From positions 2,470-66,469 of the forward strand of contig JAJYGQ010000003.1 in assembly GCA_021785065.1 (NCBI GenBank): a DNA stretch of 64,000 nt, in the 5' to 3' direction. Numbering within the stretch: position 1 is the stretch's first letter; every line of letters starts with the position of its first letter. This DNA is from a bacterium. GTDB taxonomy: Bacteria > Patescibacteriota > Minisyncoccia > Phycocordibacterales > JAKAEA01. Made by a program: the position numbers and the translations under genes. The notes beneath the pieces were generated by a model. That model made no database searches. It had not been told where the DNA came from and saw only the letters and a program-made list of their open reading frames with translations. Positions 43,048 through 64,000 of this stretch are shown in pieces.

Positions 43048-43857
43048 AGCTCCTACCTGAATATGTTGATCAAAAAATTCCACTGCCGCTCGTAAAGGCC
43101 CTTAACAACGGCTTTTATGTCCGCGGCAACGCGGATTTTTTGTTTTCCGAACGATTGTTGCTTGAAAAATACATTCCGTCGCGGCACGACTTTCTAGCAT
43201 CGGCAACGATGTTAGAGGGGTCTTTATAGTGTCGTAGACGGGCAGGTAAAACAATACTGTTATTGAGAATCTTTGATTCCAGATAACAGAGTATATTAAT
43301 TGTGGTTCTTACATTTCCTGACGGGAATGTAAGGGCATATGGTGGATGCCTTGGCTTCAAAAGGCGATGAAGGACGTAGCATAACTGCGATAAGCTTCGG
43401 GGAGGTGTCGAGCAACCGTCAATCCGAAGATTTCCGAATGAGGAAACTCCCGCGTTTTAACGCGGACGTTTGCGCTTGACGCAAACGAGTATACCCAGGG
43501 AAGTAAAACATTTCAGTACCTGGAGGAATAGAGACCAATCGCGCAAGCGAATGGAATTTCCTAAGTAGCGGCGAGCGAAAAGGAATGAGCCCAAACCCGA
43601 TTCCACCTTTGCTGTTTGACGAGAGTCGAATAGCGGAGGTGCGATCGGGGGTTGTAAGGCGGTAACGTCACTTTTATAGTGAGAAGAGTTACAAAATGAG
43701 ATAGTAGCGGAACGTGCTGGAAAGCGCGGCCCCAGAGGGTAATGGCCCCGTACGCGAAACTAACTCATCTCTTTTGTTACCGTTCTTGAGTACCTCGAGA
43801 CACGAATGGCTCGGGGGAATCCAGCGGAACTAACCGCTAAGGCTAAATACTTTTGAA

Positions 43858-43897
<40 letters not shown>

Positions 43898-43967
43898 CAG
43901 CCCGGTGAGGGCGGTGAAATAGACCTGAAACCATATGCCTACAAGGAGTCAGAGCGGGGTACCACTT

Positions 43968-44385
43968 TGCGTGGTATGACGTTCTCAAAATAAAATTAAG
44001 AAAATTTATCTTTCATTCATCAAAATTTTATTGCTGAATATATACACTTTTATTGTGTACTATGTTTATGTAATACAAAGTTTGATGGATACAACCTTCT
44101 ACATAGGTTATACGAATTCAATTGATCGAAGATTGAAAGAACATAACTATAGTAAGGGTCGCTTTACCAGGAAACATATTCCCTGGAAACTTGTTTACTA
44201 TGAAGCATTTAACGACAAATTTCTAGCGAAACGTCGAGAAAAGATGCTCAAAGAAACCAGTAGGGCTTGGCAAGAATTACGAAAACGTCTCGGTGTTAAT
44301 TATCGAGAAAAAAAATCGCAAACAAATCCAGCCCAAGATATATTATTTTCTAAGTAAGTTTATAATTGAGGATGTCATAGTGCCT
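43968..44385 (+). mobile_element. about 415-nt AT-rich insertion in 23S helix-25 region (IVS-like or intron) carrying a GIY-YIG ORF
   Basis: Flanked by a perfect 13-bp helix GGGGTACCACTTT / AAAGTGGTACCCC; E. coli-equivalent position about 540-550, the classic IVS site. Confidence 0.6.
44031..44357 (+). CDS. GIY-YIG family nuclease (small stand-alone type) encoded inside the 23S insertion
   Basis: YVYVIQS...FYIGYTNSIDRRLKEHN plus downstream Arg/Glu catalytic residues. Confidence 0.75.
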   Translation: MLNIYTFIVYYVYVIQSLMDTTFYIGYTNSIDRRLKEHNYSKGRFTRKHIPWKLVYYEAFNDKFLAKRREKMLKETSRAWQELRKRLGVNYREKKSQTNPAQDILFSK

Positions 44386-46099
44386 AAAGTGGTACCCCGT
44401 CATGGCGTGCCTATTGAAGAATGAGCCAACGAGTTCTAGCATCCTGCGGGCTAAAGGCGCGAGCCTGGAGCCGCAGGGAAACCGAGTGTGAATAGCGCGT
44501 TTGTAGGATGCTAGAGACCCGAAGCCAGAGCGATCTACCCATGTGCAGGGTGAATGGTGCCGAAAGGCACCAGGAGGCCCGAACCGATAAGCCGTTCAAC
44601 ACTTTCGGATGACATGTGGGTCGAAGTGAAAAGCTAATCGAGCCTGGTAATAGCTGGTTCTCTCCGAAATAGCTTTTGGGTTAGCGTCGAATGTTCCCAG
44701 GGGGGGTAGAGCACTGGAAGGTCTCGACAGGGCGAAAGCTCGCGAGACCTATCAAACTCCGAATACTCTTGGTTAAAAGTTCGGCAGTTAGACTGTGGGG
44801 GCTAAGCTCCATTGGTCAAAAGGGAAACAGCCCAGATCTCCAGTTAAGGTCCCTAAATTTATGCTAAGTGCACTTAAGGTGGTAGAAATTCTCTAACAAT
44901 GAGGAGGTTGGCTTAGAAGCAGCCATCCTTTAAAGAAAGCGTAACAGCTCACTCATCGAGAGTTTCCGCGCCGAAGATAATCGGGGCTAAGCATAGTACC
45001 GAAACTGAGGACATTATTTTTCTTCGGAAAAATAGCGTGGTAGGAGAGTTTTCGTGTTGCGATGAAGGCGAAGGGGTGACCCACGCTGGAGCGTCACGAA
45101 GTAAGAATGTTGGCACAAGTAACCGCAATCAGTGTGAAAACCACTGACGCCGAAAGATCAAGGTTTCCTTGGCAATGACAATCAGCCAAGGGTTAGTCGG
45201 TCCTAAGGGGATGGCGAACGCCGCACCCGATGGATACATGGTTAATATTCCATGACTTTTGTGTTAGGCGATGAGAGGACGGAGTGCAGTATCCCGAGCA
45301 CCTTATTGGATTGGTGTTCGTGTCGTGAGAGTGGCGTGTAGGAAAATCCGCACGCGGCCGTAAGGCACATTCAAGCGAAGCGAAGCTGTTGAGGGCGACC
45401 TCGACCAATTCGGGAAAGCGCGCTTCCAAGAAAAGTCTCTAAGCTTACTAACACAGAAACCGTACCGCAAACCGACACAGGTGATCAGCTCGAGTAGAGC
45501 AAGGCGAACGAATGAGAAGTCCCCAAGGAACTCGGCAAAAAAGCGGCCGTAACTTCGGAATAAGGCCTGCCTATCGCAAGATAGGCCGCAGCTAAAGTAT
45601 GCTTGGCAACTGTTTACCAAAAACACAGCTCCCTGCGAACTCGAAAGAGGATGTATAGGGGGTGACACTTGACCAATGCCAGAAGGTCAACTATCGGCGG
45701 TGCGATTATATCAAGCTGACTGGTACAAGCCCTGGTGAATGTCGGTCGTAACTATAACGATCCTAAGGTAGCGAAATTCCTTGTCAGGTAAGTTCTGACG
45801 CGCACGAATAGTGTCATGACTGAGCAACTGTCTCGGGGACCCGTTCGGTGAAAATACAATACCGGTGAAGATGCCGGTTACCTGCAGCTAGACGAAAAGA
45901 CCCCGGAAGCTTTACTGCAACTTGGTATTGAGCGTACGTTGTTGATGCGTAGCATAGGTGGGAGAGGTTGAGGGCATGATCTCGGTTGTGCCGGACTCGT
46001 CAGTGAAATACCACTCTTCATAGGTGTACGTTCTAACCCGCGCGGCAAAAACGCGCGGAAACAGTACTAGGCGGGCAGTTTTAGTGGGGCGCTATCCTC

Positions 46100-47059
46100 A
46101 ACTTTGGGCGCCTCAGATTTGGTAAATGGTTCAAACGACCCTCCACCAAGTCAAATTATAAAATCAGGGGGACTTTAGTCCGTAAGGGCTATCGAAAAGT
46201 TAGCTATATGCTGGAACATCCGAGTATCTTTATGTACTCGCTCAAGTTTTTTGAGCAGTGAAAATCGTAAAGTGCGGACAATCAGCAGGAAATGCTCCTA
46301 TTCTAATATTTTTATTCAGCATAGAAGCAAATCCTCAGAGACTACACGCTAACCTCCGCGAAAGCGGATGATGATATAGTCCGATCTTTGTGGCGACACA
46401 AAGCTTACTACATATAGTAAGACCATTAATGAACACTAAGGAAATTCGGGAGTACAAAAACACTCTCAAACTTACTGACATTCAAAAATCTATTCTCGTC
46501 GGAACATTGTTGGGCGATGGACATTTAGAGACGCAAGATAACGGTAAAACGTATCGTCTCAAAATTGAACATCAGTTAGCCCAGCAAGACTACACGGAAT
46601 GGCTTCACAGCCACTTCAAAGAGTGGGTTAGAAATGGAATGTATAGAAAAGTAAAATCACAAGGTAAAGAATATGTCGGATTTACCACATATTCGCACGG
46701 CGCCTTCAGATTTTACGCTCAGCAATTTTACACTGAGAAAAAGAAACATATTCCCAGAATGATCAGTAAATTGCTAAATCCATTAGTTGTTGCGATCTGG
46801 TTTATGGATGATGGTTCGTGGAAATCAGAAAAACACGAAACCTTCATAATACATACGCTCGGATTCACAAAAGAAGATCTTACGTTGATACAAGATTCGT
46901 TTAGAAAATTGTTCAATATAGAAACTTCACTTCATCGACAAAAAGAAAGATATTGGAGGTTGTATATACGATCAAGTTCCGCAAAAGAATTTGAAAAACT
47001 AATACAACCTTACACATCACTCGTTGATTCTATGAAGAAAAAGATGGGTAACAATAAGC
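46100..47059 (+). mobile_element. group I intron in 23S rRNA (domain V, before CTAAAGAGTAACGGAGG) encoding a LAGLIDADG endonuclease
   Basis: Exon sequence resumes exactly at CTAAAGAGTAACGGAGGAG; intron contains AGAGACTACACG (P7/J8-7-like); ORF stop codon lies in the downstream exon. Confidence 0.7.
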
Positions 47060-47070
47060 CTAAAGAGTAA
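46390..47070 (+). CDS. double-motif LAGLIDADG homing endonuclease
   Basis: ILVGTLLGDGHL and VVAIWFMDDGS motifs about 100 aa apart. Confidence 0.85.
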   Translation: MATQSLLHIVRPLMNTKEIREYKNTLKLTDIQKSILVGTLLGDGHLETQDNGKTYRLKIEHQLAQQDYTEWLHSHFKEWVRNGMYRKVKSQGKEYVGFTTYSHGAFRFYAQQFYTEKKKHIPRMISKLLNPLVVAIWFMDDGSWKSEKHETFIIHTLGFTKEDLTLIQDSFRKLFNIETSLHRQKERYWRLYIRSSSAKEFEKLIQPYTSLVDSMKKKMGNNKPKE

Positions 47071-47392
47071 CGGAGGAGTCTATTAAGGTCGGCTAGGCGC
47101 GAATGGAAACCGTGCCGATAGGGCATTGCCACAAGCCGGCTTGACTGCAAGAGGTAAGTCTCGAGCAGGTGCGAAAGCAGAGCAAAGTGAACCGACCATC
47201 CGCATTAGATGCGGTGGAAGATTATCTGACAAAAGCTACTCCGGGGATAACAGGCTGGTACTGCCTAAGCGTCCATAGCGACGGCAGTGTTCGGCACCTC
47301 GATGTCGGCTCAAGATATCCTCCTGGTGGAGAAGCTAGGAAGGGTTTGGCTGTTCGCCAATTAAAATCTTACGCGAGCTGGGTTCAGACCGT

Positions 47393-47714
47393 TCAGCGCT
47401 CAAATCGGAATTTTGGAATTTTCTGAAATTTTTGACATTGAGCATTGAACCGTCTGAATCCCGAGGTTTAGTTTCAGTTCCACAACTATCTGTAACTTGT
47501 TCACGGCGGTCCCGTCGAGTAATCGGCGGTGACACAGTCAACTTATATCGGTGAAGCCCATATCGTGGGAACACGAGTGCTGGTGACACCTAGGGAATTT
47601 TGTAAATTTTTACAAATGCCCGTAGAGACTACACGTTGACTATCTTTCTCGGAGTTTATAGACCGAGTGAGATAAAAATATAGTCCATTGCACGGAGTGA
47701 TCCGTGGAAACAAG
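47393..47714 (+). mobile_element. ORF-less group I intron in 23S at the L2593-equivalent site (between GACCGT and CGTGAGACAG)
   Basis: Exon context GCGAGCTGGGTTCAGACCGT | ... | CGTGAGACAGGTTGGTC matches the I-CreI/L2593 homing site; contains AGAGACTACACG core-like element. Confidence 0.65.
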
Positions 47715-47856
47715 CGTGAGACAGGTTGGTCTCCTATCTGCTGCAGGCGTTGATTCTTGAAGAGATTTGACTCTAGTACGAGAGGACCGAGTTGAACTGA
47801 CCTCTGGTGTGGCAGCTCTGGCGCCAGCTGGACCGCTGCGTAGCTATGTCGGGAAC

Positions 47857-47889
<33 letters not shown>

Positions 47890-48072
47890 GACTCTAAGAT
47901 TAGGAATCGTTAAGACCCGTGGGAGATGACCACGTTGATAGGCACCAGGTGTACGCACAGTAATGTGTTGAGCCGAGGTGTACTAATTGGTCGATCTTGT
48001 CAGGAAATGTACGAAGCACAAAATATACTCTGTTACCTGGAATTACAAAGAAATTAAAACATTGAATGTTGT

Positions 48073-48186
48073 GTTCTGGTGGTTCGTCGCGGAGGTCACA
48101 CCTGATCTCATTCCGAACTCAGAAGTTAAGCTCCGTTGAGGCGATGGTACCGTCTATGGATGGGAGAGTAGCTCGCCGCCGGAACA
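48073..48186 (+). rRNA. rrf: 5S ribosomal RNA
   Basis: CCTGATCTCATTCCGAACTCAGAAGTTAAGC and GGGAGAGTAGCTCGCCGCC blocks. Confidence 0.9.
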
Positions 48187-54679: not shown

Positions 54680-54957
54680 GTCTCCTACTCTCTATAGGGG
54701 AGTTGGTTCTTTGAAACTTGAAATACTTGAGATGGGTGGAGCCGGTAAAAACGGCTGCATCCAGCAAGTACCCAAATTATTCTTACAAAAATAATTCCAA
54801 ATAAAATAAGTCAGTTTTATTCGAGCAATCAAACTCTACGAATCTAAATTATTGTTAGGCATAAGAACATATTAAAGCGATAGTTTTCACTAGCGTCTTT
54901 TATTTTGTTCCGTTTGACTCGTCAAGAATCTTATTCGATTCTTCGCGAGGATAATTT

Positions 54958-56555
<1,598 letters not shown>

Positions 56556-56783
56556 TTCAAGGTGAATTTCGTCAATCATCACTTGATGATTAGACTGACG
56601 GAGTCGATATTGTGGATCTCGTACGAGTCCATAATGGAACGCGAATTCCTAAAGCGCTGACCGCAGGGAAAGACCGCAAATAAACGGAACAAAATAAAGG
56701 ACGTCGCTTCTTTATTCGGAAAAATCGCCTTAATAGGGCGGTTTTTCTTTTATTAGGTCATATTTTTAGGGTACAGAAAAGTA

Positions 56784-56811
56784 TTGACAAATATTTTATA
56801 TATGCTATTAT
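56784..56811 (+). promoter_or_regulatory. sigma70-like promoter (TTGACA-16-TATTAT) for the lytic transglycosylase gene
   Basis: Hexamers read directly about 80 nt upstream of ATG 56893. Confidence 0.5.
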
Positions 56812-56892
56812 ACACCATGGCGCATACGGGATAGAGAGACAACGAACTTATTGTTTTGTTTTGTTGTTTTTCTTTTTTAGTGGGGTATTCTT

Positions 56893-57345
56893 ATGCGTCA
56901 GTTCTTTCTCATTTCGGGGATGGTGTTTCTCATTTCTCATGCAGCTGCTTTTGGTAGCTACAGTAGGAATCGATGGGAGATCATCCACAGGCTTATTCCT
57001 GCTTTGATACAAGTGGAATCGAGCGGGAATAATTGGAAGGTTGGAGACAAAAAACGCTTCTATAAGGCGTATGGTTGTCTCCAAATAAGGGAGCTGATGT
57101 GTATCGACGTTGACAAACGTTGGCACACACATTACAGGGCCTCTGATTGCTTAGGCAATCGGAAGCTCTCGATTCTCATCTGCCTGCGGTACTACCGTTT
57201 GTACGATACCGCCCGGGTGGTCGGTCACCGACCAACTCTTGAGGACTTGGCCCGCATGTGGAATGGCGGACCGTACGGTTTCAAAAAACGGAGTACTGTA
57301 GGCTACTGGAGGAAGGTCCGCAAAGTCCTTCACTCTCAGGGATGA
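56893..57345 (+). CDS. small secreted lysozyme-like/lytic transglycosylase (SLT-domain) protein
   Basis: Signal peptide; IQVESSGNNW...AYGCLQIRE matches the SLT catalytic Glu-Ser and GLMQ(I) motifs. Confidence 0.6.
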   Translation: MRQFFLISGMVFLISHAAAFGSYSRNRWEIIHRLIPALIQVESSGNNWKVGDKKRFYKAYGCLQIRELMCIDVDKRWHTHYRASDCLGNRKLSILICLRYYRLYDTARVVGHRPTLEDLARMWNGGPYGFKKRSTVGYWRKVRKVLHSQG

Positions 57346-57358
57346 GTTCTTGATATAG

Positions 57359-57392
57359 GCCGTGACTAGACCACACTAGTCACGGCTTTTTT
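57359..57392 (+). terminator. rho-independent terminator
   Basis: GCCGTGACTAG-accaca-CTAGTCACGGC followed by TTTTTT. Confidence 0.8.
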
Positions 57393-57458
57393 CTTGGTTG
57401 GTTTTTGAAAATCTTTTGCCAAGTGGCGTTTTTTCTGCTATATTTCTCCAGCGTAGAT

Positions 57459-57532
57459 GGGCGTATAGCTCAGGTGGTTAGAGCGCGTCACTGATAATGA
57501 CGAGGTCCCACGTTCGAGTCGTGGTACGCCCA
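57459..57532 (+). tRNA. tRNA-Ile (anticodon GAT)
   Basis: GGGCGTATAGCTCAGGTGGTTAGAGCGCGTCACTGATAATGACGAGGTCCCACGTTCGAGTCGTGGTACGCCCA; cloverleaf with anticodon loop cTGATAa. Confidence 0.9.
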
Positions 57533-58987
57533 CATTCCTCGGAAATCGATGTTTTTAGGCGCAGTGGCGAGTACTTGATAGACGCTTTTAAATTGAGCTG
57601 AAGCCACCGTTTGGTTTTTGATAGAAGCGTTCGAGAGTACTTTTCCGAGCATATTTCGCTTTTCTTCCTCGGTGTAGTTCAAATACGTTTCCGCGGCCTT
57701 GTTGCCCTCTAAAAGAACTTCTTTAATCTGTTCGAGAGTAAAAGGCGACACACCACCCCTAGCTTGGATTTCGGCGATTTGCTTCTTGATAATAACCCGC
57801 TTGTTTTCAATCTCCTGAAGCTTGATTTTGTAGACTTCTTCCCGGATTAATTGAGAACTGTAGCCATCGGCCAGAGTTAATTCTTTCTTGAGCAGATCGT
57901 CCAACTCCGCAGTCAGAGTTCCCGTTGAATTTTCAACATACGTGATTTTGCCTTTATTTTCTTCCTTATACATATCATAGGAGAATTCGATCAATTCTTC
58001 TCTGAATTTTAATTTGAGAAAAAGGTTGGATAGAAGAGCGTGAACATCATCGGATTTCAGATACTTTTTGTGTTCTTCGCAGTTACCCCTGCCATTGGTG
58101 CAGTAGTAATATTGGTGGCCCCGTTGGGTGTCCACGGTTAACGCGCAGCCGCAGGAGGCGCATTTCAGGAATCCCTGAGCGGCGTAGAAGTACTTTTTCG
58201 GGCGAGGGTGATTCCGGCCGGCGAGAACGTCTTGCACGGTGTCAAACAGTTTTTGAGATATGATCGGTGTATGTTTGCCGGGGTAAATTTTGCCGTCACG
58301 AGGCATGAGGCCGGTGTAGAAGCGGTTGAGGAGCAAGCGCTGTAACTGACCTTTTTCGATTTTGTTGCCGGTTTTGGTTCGTAAACCTTCTTTGTAGAGA
58401 ATGTCGCTGGTTTGCTTCAGCGTGTGAGTGCCTGTGGCGTAGAGCTCAAATGCGCGGGTGATAAACGGAGCATACTTTTTGTCCACGACGACGGTTTTGG
58501 TAGTCTTGTCGTTAAGATATCCCAGAGGCGCTTGATTGGGCCATTCACCACGTTCCAGTTTTGCTCGGTTGCCTCGTTTGACGTTGACGCTAAGGTCACG
58601 AATGTATTGATTGGCCATGGCCTGCTCAATGCTCATGACGATGACGTTGTCGTTAGGGTAGTAGCTTTTATCAAACGTCCGAATGCACTTAATCTGATTG
58701 TTTTGGAGGAGCCATTGAATCTGACCGCCATCCACTGGATTTCTCGTTAAACGGTCAATTTTCCAGCAGAGAATGGCATCGGCTTTGCCGGCGGTGATCA
58801 TTTTGATCATGTCATTGAAGATGGGCCGGCCGGGCTCTTTAGCCGATTTGCTTTCCTTGAGAATGGCAATTACGTCTAAGCCATTAGCTTTGACGATTTT
58901 CTGGAGCTCGTCTTCTTGCGATGCCAGCGACAAAACCTGTTTATCTTCAGTATCAGTGGATTTTCTACAATAGAGAATAAATTTCAT
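57488..58987 (-). CDS. large serine recombinase (integrase), C-terminus encoded on the complement of tRNA-Ile
   Basis: Catalytic YCRKSTDTEDKQ...SLASQ...DRLTRN resolvase domain, recombinase domain, zinc ribbon CASCGC...YYYC; last 15 codons and TGA stop overlap the tRNA anticodon and T arms. Confidence 0.85.
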   Translation of the reverse strand: MKFILYCRKSTDTEDKQVLSLASQEDELQKIVKANGLDVIAILKESKSAKEPGRPIFNDMIKMITAGKADAILCWKIDRLTRNPVDGGQIQWLLQNNQIKCIRTFDKSYYPNDNVIVMSIEQAMANQYIRDLSVNVKRGNRAKLERGEWPNQAPLGYLNDKTTKTVVVDKKYAPFITRAFELYATGTHTLKQTSDILYKEGLRTKTGNKIEKGQLQRLLLNRFYTGLMPRDGKIYPGKHTPIISQKLFDTVQDVLAGRNHPRPKKYFYAAQGFLKCASCGCALTVDTQRGHQYYYCTNGRGNCEEHKKYLKSDDVHALLSNLFLKLKFREELIEFSYDMYKEENKGKITYVENSTGTLTAELDDLLKKELTLADGYSSQLIREEVYKIKLQEIENKRVIIKKQIAEIQARGGVSPFTLEQIKEVLLEGNKAAETYLNYTEEEKRNMLGKVLSNASIKNQTVASAQFKSVYQVLATAPKNIDFRGMWAYHDSNVGPRHYQ

Positions 58988-59023
58988 AGGAGAATTTTAG
59001 AACAATATGGGAAAATGACTAGT

Positions 59024-59782
59024 TCAAATTTTGTAAATTCTGTGTCGTCCTGTGCCCAGGCGCATAGTGTCGTAGGATTTATCTATTTCCGGCTCACCGG
59101 CACCCAATTCTTGAAGCGCAGCATCTACAGCGGTGGCACTGATACCACCAACTATTTCCGGTCGTAGCAGATTTCTTGAGCAGGTATACGATTTTTGACC
59201 CATTAAGCGGTAATCGGTAAAAGATTTAGTCATATACTTAGCTAGATAGGAAGATAATCTTGGGCCACCATCACTTTGGATTACGTCAATGAAGCCGTGT
59301 CCCCAGAGTCCTTTAACCAATCGGGTATGTCGCTCTGTTTTAGCGAGGGTCTCGGGAAGACCCCAGAGCATAGCATGGAAATGAATGGCTCCACGGTCTT
59401 GAAATTCTGGGACTGCGATGTACCGAAATTGTTTGCCGAATTGATGGCGGAGAGTCTGGATAAAAGCATGGAAATCTTTGTATCCATGACTGAGAGACGT
59501 TTGGTTGTCTTGGTAGGTAAGAGTAAGCAGTAGAGGGTGGTCAACTCCTCCAAGGTTAGCAGAAACAAGCCGTCTAAAAGCCATTGCAGCGCGCCGTGCG
59601 TTATCTTGGCGTTTGCCCTCGTATTCGTGTCGCTGTAATGGATTTTCTCCACCAGGAGCCACACCCACGCCGCCATTTTTAACCGAAAAGCGTCTCTGTC
59701 TTGGGGGTCTATCTGGAAGGTCTCGTGAGTATTCATATGTTTCAATTGTGTGAGCGTATTTAATAATTTTGTTGTATCCCAT
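59024..59782 (-). CDS. rep: rolling-circle replication initiator, Rep_1 (pC194/pUB110-like) HUH endonuclease family
   Basis: Motif I LLLTLTY, motif II HFHAMLW (HUH), motif III YLAKYMTK (catalytic Tyr). Confidence 0.75.
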   Translation of the reverse strand: MGYNKIIKYAHTIETYEYSRDLPDRPPRQRRFSVKNGGVGVAPGGENPLQRHEYEGKRQDNARRAAMAFRRLVSANLGGVDHPLLLTLTYQDNQTSLSHGYKDFHAFIQTLRHQFGKQFRYIAVPEFQDRGAIHFHAMLWGLPETLAKTERHTRLVKGLWGHGFIDVIQSDGGPRLSSYLAKYMTKSFTDYRLMGQKSYTCSRNLLRPEIVGGISATAVDAALQELGAGEPEIDKSYDTMRLGTGRHRIYKI

Positions 59783-59814
59783 TTCTTTTTCTCTAGTTAC
59801 TTATGTGAGGTACT

Positions 59815-59844
59815 TATCAAGTCAGACAGCGGGGTCGTCCCCGC
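59815..59844 (-). promoter_or_regulatory. candidate double-strand origin: CTTGATA nick heptamer (minus strand) adjacent to GC-rich hairpins, 33 nt upstream of rep
   Basis: Minus-strand CTTGATA at 59815..59821 equals the pC194-family nick core; hairpin GCGGGG-tcgt-CCCCGC at 59829..59844 and a second GC palindrome to about 59870. Confidence 0.45.
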
Positions 59845-60013
59845 CGCCACTAAAGTGGCGCGGCGGCGACTGCCCGCTCTCGGCAATAACAGCAATTAAT
59901 CCAGCCAATGATTCTAAATATTCTTGGGCAGTCTCATCCGAAAGCTCCAAGCCGTAATACTTTTTGAAGTAGGCTTTGCACCTCTCTATGAGCAGTTGAT
60001 TTACAGTCCGCAT
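59822..60013 (-). CDS. small hypothetical protein (63 aa) upstream of rep; 3' end overlaps the GC hairpins
   Basis: ORF only; could instead be non-coding origin/leader. Confidence 0.25.
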   Translation of the reverse strand: MRTVNQLLIERCKAYFKKYYGLELSDETAQEYLESLAGLIAVIAESGQSPPRHFSGGGDDPAV

Positions 60014-60107
60014 TTCGCTAGAATAAACGGACTGTTTGGCAGAATTTCTCGCTCTCGGTACCCAACTGGCTAACTGAAGCCAAAAATTTCATAGAATTTT
60101 TAATAAA

Positions 60108-61052
60108 ATGCCCACTATTAAGCGGGAGTATGGAAAACTCAAAGCAAAACCAACCTTTTTCAAGAAAGGAACTGTCGTCTATTCAAATTCCGGCCACGCA
60201 TTACACCTTTCCAATGGCTACTATCGTTGCAGTCTAAATTGCAGAAAAGAGCTTGGCAGCAAAGAAAGCCAAGTTGAACAGGAGCGTCTGCACCGAGATT
60301 TTTCTCGAATAGCTAAACGTTTCGCGATTGGTGAGGACGATGTCAACGCTGTCTTGCGCCAATTGATGCAGAGGTATTTTGTGAATACGTTGTTTGATAT
60401 TGACGAAAAGACCGATAGCAAAGGAAGAATAATTAACGCCAATATCGTCAAAATGAAGGCTGATATTAAACGGGGTGAATTTGTCAAAAGAGACGTGACT
60501 GATTCTTTTGATCGATTCATGGAAATCAGTAAAGACGAATATCCATTTATCATGTTCTGTTACGCTTTTGGTGTTATTGGATCATTGTCGGCATTGCATG
60601 GGGAGCGTGAGATTGGGCAAGTCTTGGCCGCGATTACCAAACACGTCTATATATCAGATATTGGAATTGTAGAGAAAATTGAATTTGAACCATGGGGCTG
60701 GTACATCTTGAATTTCATGGAAAAACAGGTGCCGAACTATTTATGGAGTCTTAAAAAACATGGGGTAGATATCACCAATGACCACACCGATCAATTTTTG
60801 AAAAAAGATTTTTCGGCGGCAATCGCGTATTTTGAATCCGAAGGTTTTGAAGAAGCACTCCACAATGATATGACCCAAGTTCTCTACAAACTTTTTTCGT
60901 TGATGAGAGATTCAATACGAGTACTTTTAAAAGGCGATACAGCATCAATGCAAAAAGCCTACACGGATTTGGTTGAACGATTTAAGAAAGATCCAGTATT
61001 CAAAATGGCAATGATGTTGCCGGCATTAGGAAGTGGAAAGATCAAACTTTAA
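60108..61052 (+). CDS. hypothetical protein (314 aa) of the element
   Basis: Clean ORF, no recognisable motif. Confidence 0.45.
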   Translation: MPTIKREYGKLKAKPTFFKKGTVVYSNSGHALHLSNGYYRCSLNCRKELGSKESQVEQERLHRDFSRIAKRFAIGEDDVNAVLRQLMQRYFVNTLFDIDEKTDSKGRIINANIVKMKADIKRGEFVKRDVTDSFDRFMEISKDEYPFIMFCYAFGVIGSLSALHGEREIGQVLAAITKHVYISDIGIVEKIEFEPWGWYILNFMEKQVPNYLWSLKKHGVDITNDHTDQFLKKDFSAAIAYFESEGFEEALHNDMTQVLYKLFSLMRDSIRVLLKGDTASMQKAYTDLVERFKKDPVFKMAMMLPALGSGKIKL

Positions 61053-61053
61053 C

Positions 61054-61429
61054 AGAAATACCGTTCCGGCCGCTTAAGCCGGGCAGGTTCTCACACCGCC
61101 CGTGGGGTTTGCGGCTTCTTATTTTCGGGCACAATGGCGCGTCCTTGGCGCAGCATCGTAGTGAAGCACAAACGCTTACACCATAGAGCTTTCTAGCGCT
61201 ATGGAGATTTCCTCTCTTTTGGGAAAGGAAATAGTAGAAGCCAGAAAGTCCTATGGGCTGGCTTCACTACCATACTGCGCCGGTCGCGACAAACATTAAA
61301 GGAAATAGTAGAAGCCAGAAAGTCCTATGGGCTGGCTTCACTACCATACTGCGCCGGTCGCGACAAACATTAGTGGCTTGAAGCCCGAAACCTCCACGGG
61401 CTTACGAGAGCGGCCGGAACCGTATTTCT
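61054..61429. repeat. 376-bp structured non-coding block: 20-bp terminal inverted repeats (1 mismatch) enclosing a 74-bp direct repeat x2, each unit with an 8-bp-stem hairpin
   Basis: Left arm GAAATACCGTTCCGGCCGC (61055..61073) versus right arm GCGGCCGGAACCGTATTTC (61410..61428); repeat units 61225..61298 and 61299..61372; hairpin GAAGCCAG...CTGGCTTC. Confidence 0.8.
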
Positions 61430-61466
61430 TGAGAGAATATTTTGTGATATTCTATTAAAAATAAAC

Positions 61467-62009
61467 ATGGATTTTTATATCATTTTTGCCGGTATTATTG
61501 AACAGGGTTTTGCCAATAAACTTGTTGTAGCAATAAATAGGGCAGCCACTCTTAAAGTAAGAAAAATATTTATTTTTTTCTCATCTTTAGGCGGGAACAT
61601 TCAAGAAGGATTCACTATCGCGTCAGTTATCCAAAATTCCACAATTCCAATATCAATCCACGCTAATAACAATATTGATTCAATCGCTAATGTAATATAC
61701 TTATCAGCAAAAGAAAGGACCGCGGAATCTTACGCAAAATTTTATCTTCATGGCGCAACAGGTCCTCAAGTTGCATACGATGAAAAAGGTTTGAAAGAAC
61801 AACTTTTGGCAGTTAAAACAGAAAATACACGCATAGCACAGTTTGTATCTGAAAATTCGAATCTAAATTTCAAAAAAGTCCAAGCCATGATGCGGGCAGG
61901 AACAACGATGACTACCCAACAGGCGTTGCAGTATGGGATAGTTAAAGAAATCATCCACAAAGAAGTACCGATTGACGCGGTCAAGGAAGAGATTTTAATT
62001 GTTAATTAA
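61467..62009 (+). CDS. ClpP-like (S14 family) serine protease, short form (phage prohead-protease-like)
   Basis: ClpP-like blocks IFFSSLGGNIQEGFTIASVI (compare INSPGGVITAGMSIYDTM), Ser in DSIAN, His in YLHGATG. Confidence 0.55.
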   Translation: MDFYIIFAGIIEQGFANKLVVAINRAATLKVRKIFIFFSSLGGNIQEGFTIASVIQNSTIPISIHANNNIDSIANVIYLSAKERTAESYAKFYLHGATGPQVAYDEKGLKEQLLAVKTENTRIAQFVSENSNLNFKKVQAMMRAGTTMTTQQALQYGIVKEIIHKEVPIDAVKEEILIVN

Positions 62010-62011
62010 TT

Positions 62012-62245
62012 ATGAAAAATACAACAATGGAATATGTAAAAAAAATAGTTGAGGAATCATTAAAAAATATGGGTTGTACTGACGTGGCATTCCCTGACCC
62101 TAAAGAAGATCTTGTTATAGCCGTTTTTAACTGCAAAGAAATTACAAGTTTTGTTACTGAAATACCAGGATGGACACATTCGGGTATTCATTTAGATCCA
62201 ACTCACGAACATCAATACAAAATTGACTTTAAAAGATTAAGCTAA
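62012..62245 (+). CDS. hypothetical protein (77 aa)
   Basis: ORF immediately after the ClpP-like gene stop (ATG 3 nt downstream); no motif. Confidence 0.35.
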   Translation: MKNTTMEYVKKIVEESLKNMGCTDVAFPDPKEDLVIAVFNCKEITSFVTEIPGWTHSGIHLDPTHEHQYKIDFKRLS

Positions 62246-62337
62246 TATTGTTTAGGTATATTATTCGCAAAATGGGAATAATGAAAATGACGCAACAAAT
62301 TAAAAATTAAATCAGATTAATCTTCTAAAAACTTTTT

Positions 62338-62766
62338 ATGGAAAACGATCGAGAAATTATATATGGTATGGAAGGTAAAAAAGTGAAGGGATTGCCTCTG
62401 GATGACTTGGAAAAATTAATGCGCGAATGGCAGAAGAAACTTCTCATGGACAACTGGAAGCTCGATTTAAAGATTGTCGATTTTAAAAGGAAAAATAATT
62501 ACCGTCAAAGTGGCGATTTCATAGCCGATCCTGACAAGAAAAACGCTTCTATCTTGATGACTTGGGATCCGTGGCGCGGCGATGAAGAGTACACGCTTGT
62601 TCACGAAATGTTGCACGTCTTGGTATATGACTATGATAAATACAGCGAGGGTTTAATTCTTGGTCATTATAAAAAATTCGAAGGTGAACACGATGTGTAC
62701 ATGGATAAATTAGAAAATCTAGTTCATCATTTGACCAGGATGTTGCTCGGGCGGTCAGACAGGTAG
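62338..62766 (+). CDS. putative zinc metallopeptidase (HExxH; ImmA/IrrE-like size)
   Basis: TLVHEMLHVL HExxH motif in a 142-aa protein. Confidence 0.45.
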   Translation: MENDREIIYGMEGKKVKGLPLDDLEKLMREWQKKLLMDNWKLDLKIVDFKRKNNYRQSGDFIADPDKKNASILMTWDPWRGDEEYTLVHEMLHVLVYDYDKYSEGLILGHYKKFEGEHDVYMDKLENLVHHLTRMLLGRSDR

Positions 62767-62867
62767 TTTCTTAATTTTGTTAATCAAAAATAAAAATAAC
62801 AAATAAAAAAGCCCAGGATTCATGACGAGTCCGGGGCTTTGGCGCTGATAGCTTATACCTACCGGCA

Positions 62868-63008: not shown

Positions 63009-64000
63009 TCAATGGCTGCTAGCCGAACGAATGTTTTCTTCGTTTAAGACGAGAACCTCCAAAAATTCCGGCAAGTCGTGTTTCCAATCCAAGCAATAGT
63101 CGCAACCAGGCTTGTGATAGCGCTTCATGTTGCATCCGCCCATACATATTGGGAGCATGGGGCAGTCACGACATTCCGAGAATTGGAGAGGGTCTTTTTT
63201 GACCCACAAATCATTCGGCACAGTGTCGAGGTGGATTGTCCCATCGCTGCCCAAACGGCCAACTGACCCAGTCTCAAACATCTGACCGCAACGATACAGA
63301 TTGCCGTTAAGGTCGGTGATGAAGCGATTGGGATATTCTCCAACACAAAACCCAAGTGCTCTCATCTTTTCAGTCGGAGGAAGAACTACCCAACCGTCTT
63401 TCGCCGCCCTCTTGTAGATTGCTAACGCTCTGTGAGCAAAATCATATCCTGACAGGCAGTGTGATTCGCAAGGATTAGCTGGCGAAGACACTACTGCCTG
63501 AACATTGACCTCGATCTTGTTCTTGAGACCATGCTCAGCAAGTAGTGTATAGAGTTCTGGAATCTGATCCACATTTCTGGTTGTCGTGTTTACCCGGATT
63601 GAGACCTTGAGTCCCGAGGCCACGGCGTTCTTGATGTTTTTTAATATGGTCCAGAAGGTCGGGCCGCCTCCTTTAAGTGGCCGGCATGCGTCATGAATAT
63701 CTGGAGGGCCATCAAGGGTGATGGTGAGAACAGATAAGGGTGTTGTAGCAAGGTAGGTCACCACCTCTTCACTCAGGTGATAACCATTAGTAGTGATGGA
63801 ATGACAATATTCCACCTCCGACTGTTTTGCTAAGATCGTGAATTTGTCATTCATGGCGCACAGAGCGTCGAATGAAAGAAGCGGCTCACCACCAAACCAG
63901 TCCACCTCGACCCTTTTTGCCTTCTCGCAAATCTTGCGAAACATTGCCAGAACCTTATCCGACTCTTGCGGCGATAAATACTCGTTTCTGTGCTCCTCAA
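63009..64000 (-). CDS. radical SAM enzyme with C-terminal SPASM domain (peptide-modifying or anSME-like), N-terminus beyond window
   Basis: WFGGEPLL radical-SAM block; SPASM Cys cluster CRDCPMLPICMGGC plus CDYC; reading frame stays open upstream of the annotated Met to the window edge. Confidence 0.8.
   Translation of the reverse strand, partial: EEHRNEYLSPQESDKVLAMFRKICEKAKRVEVDWFGGEPLLSFDALCAMNDKFTILAKQSEVEYCHSITTNGYHLSEEVVTYLATTPLSVLTITLDGPPDIHDACRPLKGGGPTFWTILKNIKNAVASGLKVSIRVNTTTRNVDQIPELYTLLAEHGLKNKIEVNVQAVVSSPANPCESHCLSGYDFAHRALAIYKRAAKDGWVVLPPTEKMRALGFCVGEYPNRFITDLNGNLYRCGQMFETGSVGRLGSDGTIHLDTVPNDLWVKKDPLQFSECRDCPMLPICMGGCNMKRYHKPGCDYCLDWKHDLPEFLEVLVLNEENIRSASSH

Follow-up and report, generated by a model that had tools for sequence, protein, structure and literature searches.

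A probable family of small integrative rolling-circle elements in Patescibacteria, one copy of which adjoins a tRNA-Ile gene

What kind of DNA lies against the tRNA-Ile(GAT) gene of Patescibacteria contig JAJYGQ010000003.1 (assembly GCA_021785065.1)? In a 64,000-nucleotide stretch of this contig, referred to below as the window, a first-pass annotation had pointed out a putative integrated element of some 5 kb, described as plasmid-like or single-stranded DNA (ssDNA) phage-like, with genes for a serine integrase (Int) and a rolling-circle replication initiator (Rep). We conclude, with a probability of roughly 0.7, that the region is one copy of a Patescibacteria family of small (ca. 5-7 kb) integrative rolling-circle elements. 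Rather than a prophage, it is best regarded as a rolling-circle mini-plasmid that integrates, and it may be a phage satellite. Its features are listed in Table 1.

Table 1. Features of the element and of its attachment-site tRNA gene (window coordinates; aa, amino acids).
Feature	Coordinates	Strand	Remarks
tRNA-Ile(GAT)	57459-57533	+	ARAGORN; Rfam tRNA 68.7 bits; intact; host attachment target
Inferred tRNA-proximal junction/crossover region	57526-57536		last ca. 8 nt of the tRNA and a few flanking bases; by analogy with relatives
Large serine recombinase (integrase), 499 aa	57488-58987	-	Pfam Resolvase, Recombinase and Zn_ribbon_recom; phrog_95
HUH rolling-circle initiator (Rep), 252 aa	59024-59782	-	PF23343; phrog_3419; two-tyrosine motif III (Y179, Y183)
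o63, 63 aa	59822-60013	-	directly upstream of Rep; conserved
o314, 314 aa	60108-61052	+	divergent from Rep; conserved; resembles zinc-ribbon/coiled-coil module
GC-rich non-coding region, one long imperfect hairpin	61054-61429		21-nt inverted repeat, 74-nt duplication, folding
ClpP-like serine protease, 180 aa	61467-62009	+	PF00574 6.8e-15, 55.8 bits against cut-off 20.2; probable cargo
o77, 77 aa	62012-62245	+	no match in any library; probable cargo
o142, 142 aa, HEMLH (HExxH) motif	62338-62766	+	motif in translation; probable cargo

The gene adjoining the tRNA had been read as that of a large serine recombinase with a zinc ribbon, and profile searches bore this out: all three expected Pfam domains were matched (Resolvase PF00239, 4.6e-21, aa 4-149; Recombinase PF07508, 2.3e-13; Zn_ribbon_recom PF13408, 2.6e-06, 28.2 bits against a cut-off of 25.3), as was the PHROG integrase family phrog_95 (4e-78). 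The motif YCRKST is found at aa 6-11, and SLASQ and DRLTRN are also present in the translation. R8 and S10 do not vary among 30 homologues, the serine nucleophile lying in a Y-x-R-x-S context, and C276, C279, C281, C296 and C303 are likewise invariant. More than 3500 homologues were found, the best of which are 53-76% identical; the closest come from Patescibacteria assemblies. Identity to known phage integrases is just 22-29%, and the direct match to structures of the SPbeta integrase SprA is weak.

The integrase open reading frame (ORF) and the tRNA gene overlap by 46 nt, comprising 15 codons and the stop, which are antisense to tRNA nucleotides 30-75; this overlap, already noticed in the first-pass annotation, was confirmed. 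The TGA stop is the complement of tRNA nucleotides 30-32, in the anticodon stem, and residues W486 to Q499 together with the stop are encoded by the antisense of the 3' strand of the acceptor stem, the T arm, the variable loop and the anticodon arm.

To place this arrangement in context, 221 loci from species-representative genomes, IMG/VR and metagenomes, annotated with tblastn and ARAGORN, were compared. In more than 70 loci, from Patescibacteria metagenome-assembled genomes (MAGs) and metagenomes, Rep is directly followed by Int on the same strand. The hosts of these Rep-Int loci are Paceibacterota, Taylor-, Nomura-, Zambryski-, Campbell- and Magasanikbacteria, as well as MAGs labelled Saccharibacteria, and several copies (3-5) may be present per MAG (five in CAIMKX01 contigs, four in CAIPHR01). 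At the level of the family, the proposal of an integrated element that combines a serine integrase with an HUH initiator beside a tRNA gene is supported, the Rep-Int module lying next to many different tRNA genes in dozens of Patescibacteria genomes.

When integrase ORFs were followed to their true stop, 72 non-redundant complete ORFs could be counted, and 57 of these end inside a convergent tRNA gene (three of the 57 instead end within ca. 40 nt of it). Of the other 15, most either are truncated where the contig ends or continue through the entire tRNA. The targets of the 57 are tRNA-Gln-CTG (14), Gln-TTG (11), Glu (11), Leu (6), Ile (4), Tyr (4) and Trp (2), with Ser, Gly, Lys, Arg and Asn represented by a single case each; together, they comprise fifteen isoacceptors and eleven amino-acid types. 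Integrases 37-64% identical to that of the window enter the overlapped tRNA in one frame (register 2), and the lone register-0 case, L008, was measured against the next tRNA downstream. The overlaps are 13, 28, 31, 37, 46, 58, 61, 76 or 91-100 nt long, a spread that one would expect were each ORF to end at whichever stop comes first on the tRNA antisense strand. A second, distant class of integrases (23-28% identity), which are also paired with Rep, behaves in the same way in another frame, at tRNA-Glu, Arg and Asn. Since an integrase ORF that ends in a tRNA recurs in most copies, we consider it a hallmark of the family: the integrase gene lacks its own stop codon.

The Rep ORF is located 36 bases upstream of the integrase start, on the same strand. 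Its product matched PF23343 (REP_ORF2-G2P) at 2.4e-22 (79.5 bits against a cut-off of 27.8) and phrog_3419, "rolling circle DNA replication initiation", at 2.4e-28. The Rep_1 label that had been attached to it must be abandoned: PF01446 gave no match to the 252-aa protein at E<=0.01 and was not listed even at E<=10, and we reject this identity in favor of PF23343. The three HUH motifs themselves are present as described, LTLTY (motif I), HFHAML (motif II) and YLAKYMTK (motif III, Y-x-x-x-Y), with H134, H136, Y179 and Y183 invariant across 36 Rep homologues. A total of 165 Rep homologues were found, the closest from Patescibacteria assemblies. The protein is 25-38% identical to Reps of tiny Firmicutes rolling-circle plasmids (1.5-8 kb; e.g., Geobacillus NC_022994, 1540 bp), 24-33% identical to inovirus and microvirus Reps in reference collections (tblastn), and 26% identical to a Microviridae VP4-like protein. 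A weak match to RepSA (PF20199) scored 30.3 bits, under the 34-bit cut-off. An AlphaFold (AF2) model of Rep (predicted local distance difference test score, pLDDT, 85.5) gave weak Foldseek matches (E >= 0.01), among which Rep nuclease domains of circovirus, vientovirus, geminivirus and adeno-associated virus (AAV), and the Helitron transposase, were recurrent. Circular contigs of 1.5-2.0 kb with a Rep of the PF23343 family (29-34% identity) were also observed (L175, L176, L180, L182, L187, L195, L198, L201, L207, L208 and L214). They appear to be minimal rolling-circle replicons with room for little beyond Rep, comparable to the 1540-bp plasmid NC_022994.

A direct repeat of the tRNA 3' end (up to three mismatches in 19 nt) was found in just five of 41 loci, a scarcity that fits a serine rather than a tyrosine integrase. 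In the nearest relatives, the distal site reads GTGCGCGC TGTGGGA CGATA TTAGAAC GGAATTA, to be compared with GTGCGCGC ACTAGGA TTCGAAC at the antisense 3' end of the tRNA; the distal site thus imitates the tRNA 3' end but has an insertion of five bases ahead of the T-loop motif. Loci with such a site include L013, L015, L016, L017, L018, L019, L023 and L060, whose integrases are 60-64% identical to that of the window. The site is separated from the tRNA by 4.6-8.5 kb (5.1-7.2 kb in most loci, 8.5 kb in L158), and element lengths calculated from recognizable far junctions are 5.2-7.2 kb. A generic search, with the first 9 nt of each locus's own tRNA followed by a spacer and a T-loop-like motif, revealed distal sites in nine of the 41 loci, including loci of the distant integrase class on tRNA-Glu and one locus on tRNA-Gly, and none on the opposite strand. 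For the window copy, no distal arm with the five-base shift was found in motif, hidden Markov model (HMM) or tRNA-mimic searches; the HMM, built from 11 relatives, detected nothing significant in the window.

For the Listeria integrase, Rutherford et al. (2013, PMC3783163) located the motif of the zinc ribbon domain (ZD) at half-site positions 16-24 of attP and at 11-19 of attB; this outward displacement by 5 bp in attP is a known mark of such integrases. The pattern in the relatives matches this 5-bp rule, with the T-loop region of the tRNA as the putative outer motif of attB and the distal site as the putative element-borne P arm. Identity common to both junctions in the relatives comprises the last 7-11 nt of the tRNA and up to three flanking bases, and the motif spacing puts the center 3-5 nt inside the tRNA 3' end. 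By analogy, crossover in the window copy probably occurs within about the last 8 nt of the tRNA. Because of this shared identity and spacing, the element would supply only the last few tRNA bases, and the integrase tail that lies over the tRNA (about 57488-57529) would be nearly all host DNA. In the free circle, the int ORF would run into the P arm; attP of L013, as reconstructed from its junctions, would add ca. 12 different residues. Multiple copies of the distal P arm were observed in L018 (6834-7060 and 12318-12574), L007 (5480-6575), L023 (437-5761) and L060 (5949-9383), and in L018 a unit of ca. 170 nt, made up of 19 nt of the tRNA-Leu 3' end and a GC-rich spacer, is present at both element ends. 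Such multiple sites suggest tandem arrays or remnants, left by repeated integration and decay at one tRNA.

Based on these data, the following life cycle can be proposed. The large serine integrase would insert a circular double-stranded form of the element at the very 3' end of a tRNA gene, which in the window is tRNA-Ile(GAT). Crossover would take place in about the last 8 nt, and the inner arm of the element would restore those bases, so that the tRNA stays intact. The int gene would lie at the element edge and, after integration, its frame would run into the host tRNA, antisense, as far as the first in-frame stop (46 nt in this case). Once the circle has been excised, its rolling-circle replication would begin with a nick made by the HUH Rep at a double-strand origin; the long GC-rich hairpin region is a candidate single-strand origin.

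Two further genes belong to the conserved core. Homologues of o63 (40-67% identity, tblastn) are present at the equivalent position in ca. 20 Rep-Int loci; no family match was obtained with o63 in any profile library scanned, and its product could be a regulator or a directionality factor. Homologues of o314 are present in ca. 15 loci. A word-indexed homologue search with o314 returned only the query itself, and an exhaustive HMMER search found just 79 representatives among 1.84 billion clusters. In an AlphaFold model computed with 56 of the 79 homologues, which is confident (pLDDT 87; predicted template modeling score, pTM, 0.83), a small sheet of three strands, a long helical hairpin and another beta hairpin can be seen, together with a C-terminal domain made of helices. 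Three independent weak-to-moderate signals agree on what this protein resembles. In a Foldseek comparison with viral models, the two significant matches and four of the top six were serine recombinases/integrases or unnamed proteins of recombinase size. The hhalign program aligned o314 residues 17-78 with residues 268-332 of the integrase, in its zinc-ribbon region (E 1e-4, probability 58%). PF13408 was the sole Pfam family matched by more than one member of the o314 family (seven of 56). The o314 protein thus resembles a free-standing relative of the zinc-ribbon/coiled-coil module of the integrase. Two papers on large serine integrases (PMC5499577, PMC11722253) describe directionality as being set by coiled-coil interactions and by factors that bind nearby. 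Because directionality is set at the coiled coils in these enzymes, a role of o314 in directionality or in att-site occupancy is a reasonable hypothesis, and o314, with o63, is a candidate for control of directionality.

In 17 loci (L013, 8738-9631, and 16 others), a 297-aa gene on the Rep strand, upstream of the core, is found as an alternative to o314. The two proteins are not homologous (hhalign probability 0.1%), and no PDB or Pfam match to the 297-aa protein was obtained; its C-terminus contains, by eye, a possible helix-turn-helix. The conserved core of the family can therefore be written as o63-Rep-Int plus one of two alternative upstream genes, o314 or the 297-aa gene. No defense-system match was obtained among element genes with PADLOC.

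Between o314 and the ClpP-like ORF, a 414-nt non-coding stretch (61053-61466) contains the hairpin region, whose folding z-score is about -10 (-10.2) on both strands. A 21-nt inverted repeat (61054-61074 and 61409-61429) marks the edges of this region, and a perfect 74-nt tandem duplication (61224-61371) lies within it. Two independent assemblies both contain the duplication, and the break of a Logan unitig falls exactly 30 nt inside it, which is what a true repeat predicts. No match to the non-coding region was found in Rfam. Equally structured GC-rich spacers are located downstream of the o314 homologue, ca. 1.3 kb from Rep, in L017 (z about -24) and L021, and a sequence closely similar to both stands at the equivalent position in L043. 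The spacers of these three loci resemble each other and have no convincing homology to the window region. Since position is conserved and sequence is not, the region may act in cis through its structure, for instance as a single-strand origin or a packaging hairpin. Thus, while the structure of what the first-pass annotation called origin-like DNA is evident from the z-score and the repeats, an origin is one candidate role among several, which include a packaging signal or another cis element.

Beyond the hairpin region, the ClpP-like protease and the HExxH protein of the first-pass annotation are indeed encoded, together with o77. Models of ClpP-related head-maturation proteases matched the ClpP-like protein at 1e-8 to 1e-13, all under their cut-offs, and every NCBIfam equivalog cut-off was missed. 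Of the catalytic residues, read by eye, the Ser (IDSIAN) and His (YLHGATG) motifs are present and the Asp is not evident. No family was matched at significance by o142, and no phage match was found. All three genes occur only in the window copy, being absent from the other 220 loci, and the block they form is AT-rich (GC 0.30-0.39, compared with ca. 0.47 on either side). They are probably cargo specific to this copy. Accessory content also differs between copies in the relatives, which may carry an N6/N4 DNA methylase with a MvaI/BcnI-type restriction enzyme, other methylases, a beta-lactamase-fold protein, tetratricopeptide repeat (TPR) proteins or membrane proteins.

How far the inserted DNA extends was assessed from its flanks. 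The tRNA-Ile gene, which according to ARAGORN is the sole tRNA gene in the window, is situated 897 nt downstream of the 16S rRNA gene; the end of a 16S gene is found upstream of tRNA-Ile in locus L023 as well. On the far side, a 13.9-kb version of the same contig in NCBI reaches 5.8 kb past the window end (positions beyond 64000 are given in window-extended coordinates). The genes there encode a radical-SAM protein (440 aa), a 97-aa ORF product, pyruvate kinase, RadC and a Mur ligase. The pyruvate kinase-RadC pair is common to the window contig and L013, another tRNA-Ile insertion, in which the order is RadC, pyruvate kinase, membrane protein, P-arm site and element. Because both the 16S side and the pyruvate kinase-RadC side recur in other genomes, tRNA-Ile is host DNA. 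Flank comparison bounds the inserted segment between 57533 and ca. 65050, and comparison with relatives puts the far end between 61053 and ca. 65050. Two indirect arguments, which do not amount to proof, favor an end just past o142, at roughly 62.8-63.0 kb: the AT-rich ClpP-o77-o142 block is found in no other locus, and the order in L017 is likewise structured spacer, cargo ORF and P arm. Of the extent given in the first-pass annotation, 57459-62800, the tRNA junction is clear, and the right end near 62800, where no att site, repeat or other sequence support was found, is at most plausible.

Several results weigh against our interpretation. The 3' end of tRNA-Ile was not found repeated up to 12 kb downstream, on the longer public contig, in searches with exact words of 8-11 nt, with 17-19-mers allowing up to three mismatches, or by local alignment. 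Looser motif and tRNA-mimic searches of the window performed no better than an opposite-strand control, and among the relatives the distal site is recognizable in only the nine loci of 41 mentioned above. No circular contig with both Rep and Int was detected by terminal overlap among the 221 loci, in which only integrase-less circles are circular. An empty tRNA-Ile site, which had been suggested as a check, was not found in exact-protein look-ups with the flanking 150-aa ORF and o314; these returned the same locus and two short Logan unitigs, one of which ends at the 74-nt repeat. BLAST of the non-coding region against the 221 loci, inovirus-like circles included, revealed no homologue, and the assignment of o314 comes with moderate scores (hhalign probability 58%, TM ca. 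0.3). Since neither a circle nor an empty site was found, we infer the activity of the family from its distribution alone. A separate observation concerns Logan unitig L223 (SRR13178631), which carries the 150-aa ORF and ends at window position 57504, in the tRNA after the anticodon stem. A k-mer in common with a second tRNA-Ile of the sample could explain this end, as could a variant junction.

The relation of the element to ssDNA viruses was examined with Pfam, PHROGs and the translations. No pI/Zot ATPase, P-loop protein, coat-like small hydrophobic protein or capsid was found in the window element, and no capsid family match (Microviridae capsid F/VP1) was obtained with Pfam and PHROGs for the ORFs at 57.4-63.9 kb. 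Genes of this kind were observed in integrase-less relatives. Circular contigs of 4.9-6.3 kb (L040, L085, L086, L088, L092 and L156), several of which are in IMG/VR, encode a Rep 45-52% identical to that of the window (36% in L092), a Zot/pI-like P-loop ATPase, a 490-578-aa Ser/Thr-rich membrane protein, small hydrophobic proteins and a putative protein of ssDNA-binding size. The L040 circle is binned in a Patescibacteria MAG, and Zot-type genes are also present in a few integrase-less genomic loci. With the Zot-like and partner proteins of the circles as tblastn queries, matches were confined to integrase-less loci, with nothing in the window or in the Rep-Int loci. The genes of the circles make up a set known from filamentous phages, and inoviruses have been reported in the candidate phyla radiation (CPR) (Roux et al. 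2019, PMC6813254). The circles are inovirus-like genomes and candidate helper phages for the integrase-bearing elements.

Four other explanations of the locus have to be considered. The window copy may be a decayed, immobilized remnant: a formerly mobile element would have been deprived of its far attachment site and would now persist as a fixed genomic island. The lack of a distal att-like site, repeat or inverted partner within 12 kb is what such a remnant would show, and relatives do include remnants or arrays (a truncated Rep in L060; multiple P-arm sites in L007, L018, L023 and L060). With just one junction visible and no P-arm-like site within that distance, the copy may indeed be unable to excise at present. 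However, Int, Rep, o63 and o314 are full-length, with all catalytic and invariant residues intact, and the distal site is unrecognizable in 32 of the 41 relatives too; its absence from the window may therefore mean only that the arm is too divergent. We regard decay as somewhat unlikely, though worth keeping in view. An integrated ssDNA prophage of the inovirus or microvirus type is hardly credible. PF23343 does include inovirus gpII and microvirus-type Reps, with the 24-33% identity given above, the ClpP-like protein weakly resembles head-maturation proteases, and a precedent is provided by the Ralstonia phiRSM inoviruses, which use a serine recombinase at tRNA-Ser (PMC4471427). Against this, the window element and the Rep-Int loci are devoid of Zot/pI, coat and capsid genes, the Zot-like and associated genes being restricted to integrase-less loci, and the ClpP-like gene is present only in the window copy and scores below all curated prohead protease cut-offs. 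We therefore reject the prophage, and with it the ssDNA-phage-like option of the first-pass annotation.

The two remaining explanations start from the fact that the element has no transfer genes of its own. HUH Rep-like proteins act as relaxases in some streptococcal integrative mobilizable elements, and the HUH protein could likewise be a transfer relaxase of an integrative mobilizable element that uses the conjugation or pilus machinery of another element. However, the initiators most similar to Rep are those of phages and of autonomous rolling-circle plasmids of tiny size (1.5 kb, Rep only), in which this protein serves replication, and no conjugation genes were seen in any locus inspected; a relaxase is therefore very improbable. 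Transfer might instead depend on a phage, as it does for the RS1 and TLC satellites of the Vibrio CTX phage, which are packaged and spread by a helper phage. The element would then be a satellite of a Patescibacteria inovirus-like phage, keeping replication and integration functions and a packaging signal, and spread by a helper with a related Rep. The closest free relatives of its Rep (45-52%) are the integrase-less Zot-encoding circles, one of them in a Patescibacteria MAG, the long hairpin region recalls inovirus intergenic regions, and the reported presence of inoviruses in CPR points in the same direction. On the other hand, the non-coding region of the element is not similar to any of the 221 loci, the inovirus-like circles among them, no helper is present in the same contig or window, and small rolling-circle plasmids with related Reps exist without a phage. 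On balance, a satellite is an unlikely though admissible explanation, and we retain the integrating mini-plasmid as the preferred one.

The surroundings of the element deserve a brief description. The rRNA genes of the window are unlinked and in an unusual order (43319-48184 and 54956-57533). The 23S and 5S genes are located ca. 6.8 kb upstream of the 16S gene, and the 23S gene spans 4686 nt, compared with a 2925-nt model, with a group I intron inside it at 46133-46403. The 16S gene is followed by the 150-aa ORF and tRNA-Ile, with no 23S gene next; the element occupies the usual place of the remainder of the rRNA operon, and the layout in L023 is likewise 16S, tRNA-Ile and element. Repeated insertion at tRNA-Ile might contribute to splitting of the rRNA operon in these genomes. 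No family match was found for the 150-aa ORF (56893-57345, plus strand). Its stretch VESSGNNWKVGD looks, by eye, like a lytic-transglycosylase motif, and a homologue (39% identity) adjoins tRNA-Thr in L184. On the other side of the element, a radical-SAM/SPASM peptide maturase gene (63009-64000, minus strand, and beyond; L001 4869-6774) is convergent with the cargo genes. Together with the 97-aa ORF, this gene occupies the interval from the cargo block to pyruvate kinase, where L013 has a membrane protein gene; the two may belong to the insertion or to an island of their own, or they may be accessory genes of the host.

No description of this type of element in Patescibacteria was found in the open-access literature. 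A broader interpretation, which we offer tentatively and at less than even odds, is that these elements form a previously undescribed, phylum-wide replicon family. In such a family, the int gene would be completed by its target, so that the free and integrated tails differ, specificity would have switched among at least eleven tRNA types by way of tRNA-mimic arms, and o314 would be a possible directionality factor engaging the integrase coiled coil or an att half-site; its members may be satellites of CPR inoviruses. Two ideas that follow can be tested, namely, that the C-terminus of the integrase is supplied by the target and that a free-standing zinc-ribbon/coiled-coil paralogue may control directionality. 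CPR mobile elements are poorly known and genetic tools are scarce, and a compact integrating replicon with defined tRNA targets would be a starting point for vectors. Large serine integrases are widely used in genome engineering, and a set of related enzymes (37-76% identical) that are found at different tRNA 3' ends and have mimic arms with a 5-bp shift is a dataset for studying how sites are read. Elements with restriction-modification and accessory genes, inserted directly after 16S-tRNA-Ile, may also make the genomes more plastic and might have a share in the separation of rRNA genes that is typical here.

Among known systems, the pSAM2-type integrative and conjugative elements of actinomycetes (AICEs) share several properties with the element: they are small, they are inserted at a tRNA 3' end that is kept functional, their Rep (RepSA) is encoded next to excision/integration genes, and a single tRNA may hold tandem insertions and remnants, as in relatives of the element (PMC2440964). 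AICEs differ in having a tyrosine integrase, an att identity of ca. 43-44 bp in described examples, an FtsK-like transfer gene and regulators (PMC2440964), whereas the element has a large serine integrase, almost no repeat and no transfer gene, is half the size, and resides in Patescibacteria. No FtsK/Tra-like gene was found in it in Pfam, PHROG and NCBIfam scans, and we do not class it as an AICE. The Ralstonia phages phiRSM1 and phiRSM3 are, like the element, rolling-circle replicons with a serine recombinase of their own, which acts at tRNA-Ser with a 13-bp attP (PMC4471427). Their recombinase is of the small resolvase/invertase type and they are complete inoviruses with morphogenesis genes, while the element has a 499-aa large enzyme and no virion genes. 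Tiny Firmicutes plasmids and inoviruses/microviruses share the PF23343 Rep family and its motifs with the element; those replicons are autonomous and have no integrase.

The three-domain architecture of the element integrase is common to large serine integrases of phages (Listeria A118/LI, SPbeta SprA, phiC31 and Bxb1), and the 5-bp shift between attP and attB of the LI integrase (PMC3783163) is likewise seen in relatives of the element. Unlike these phage enzymes, the element integrases use tRNA 3' ends, with many tRNA specificities among close relatives, and their ORF crosses the junction and takes its stop from the host tRNA. To our knowledge, an int ORF that crosses the junction and is ended by a host tRNA has not been described for large serine integrases. 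In archaeal integrases of the SSV1 type, which are tyrosine recombinases that target tRNA genes, attP lies within the int gene, and integration splits this gene into two non-functional parts. The element resembles SSV1 in that its attachment site is within the integrase ORF, the target is a tRNA and the coding sequence would be changed on integration; it differs from SSV1 in that only the last few codons would be swapped and the integrated gene stays full-length.

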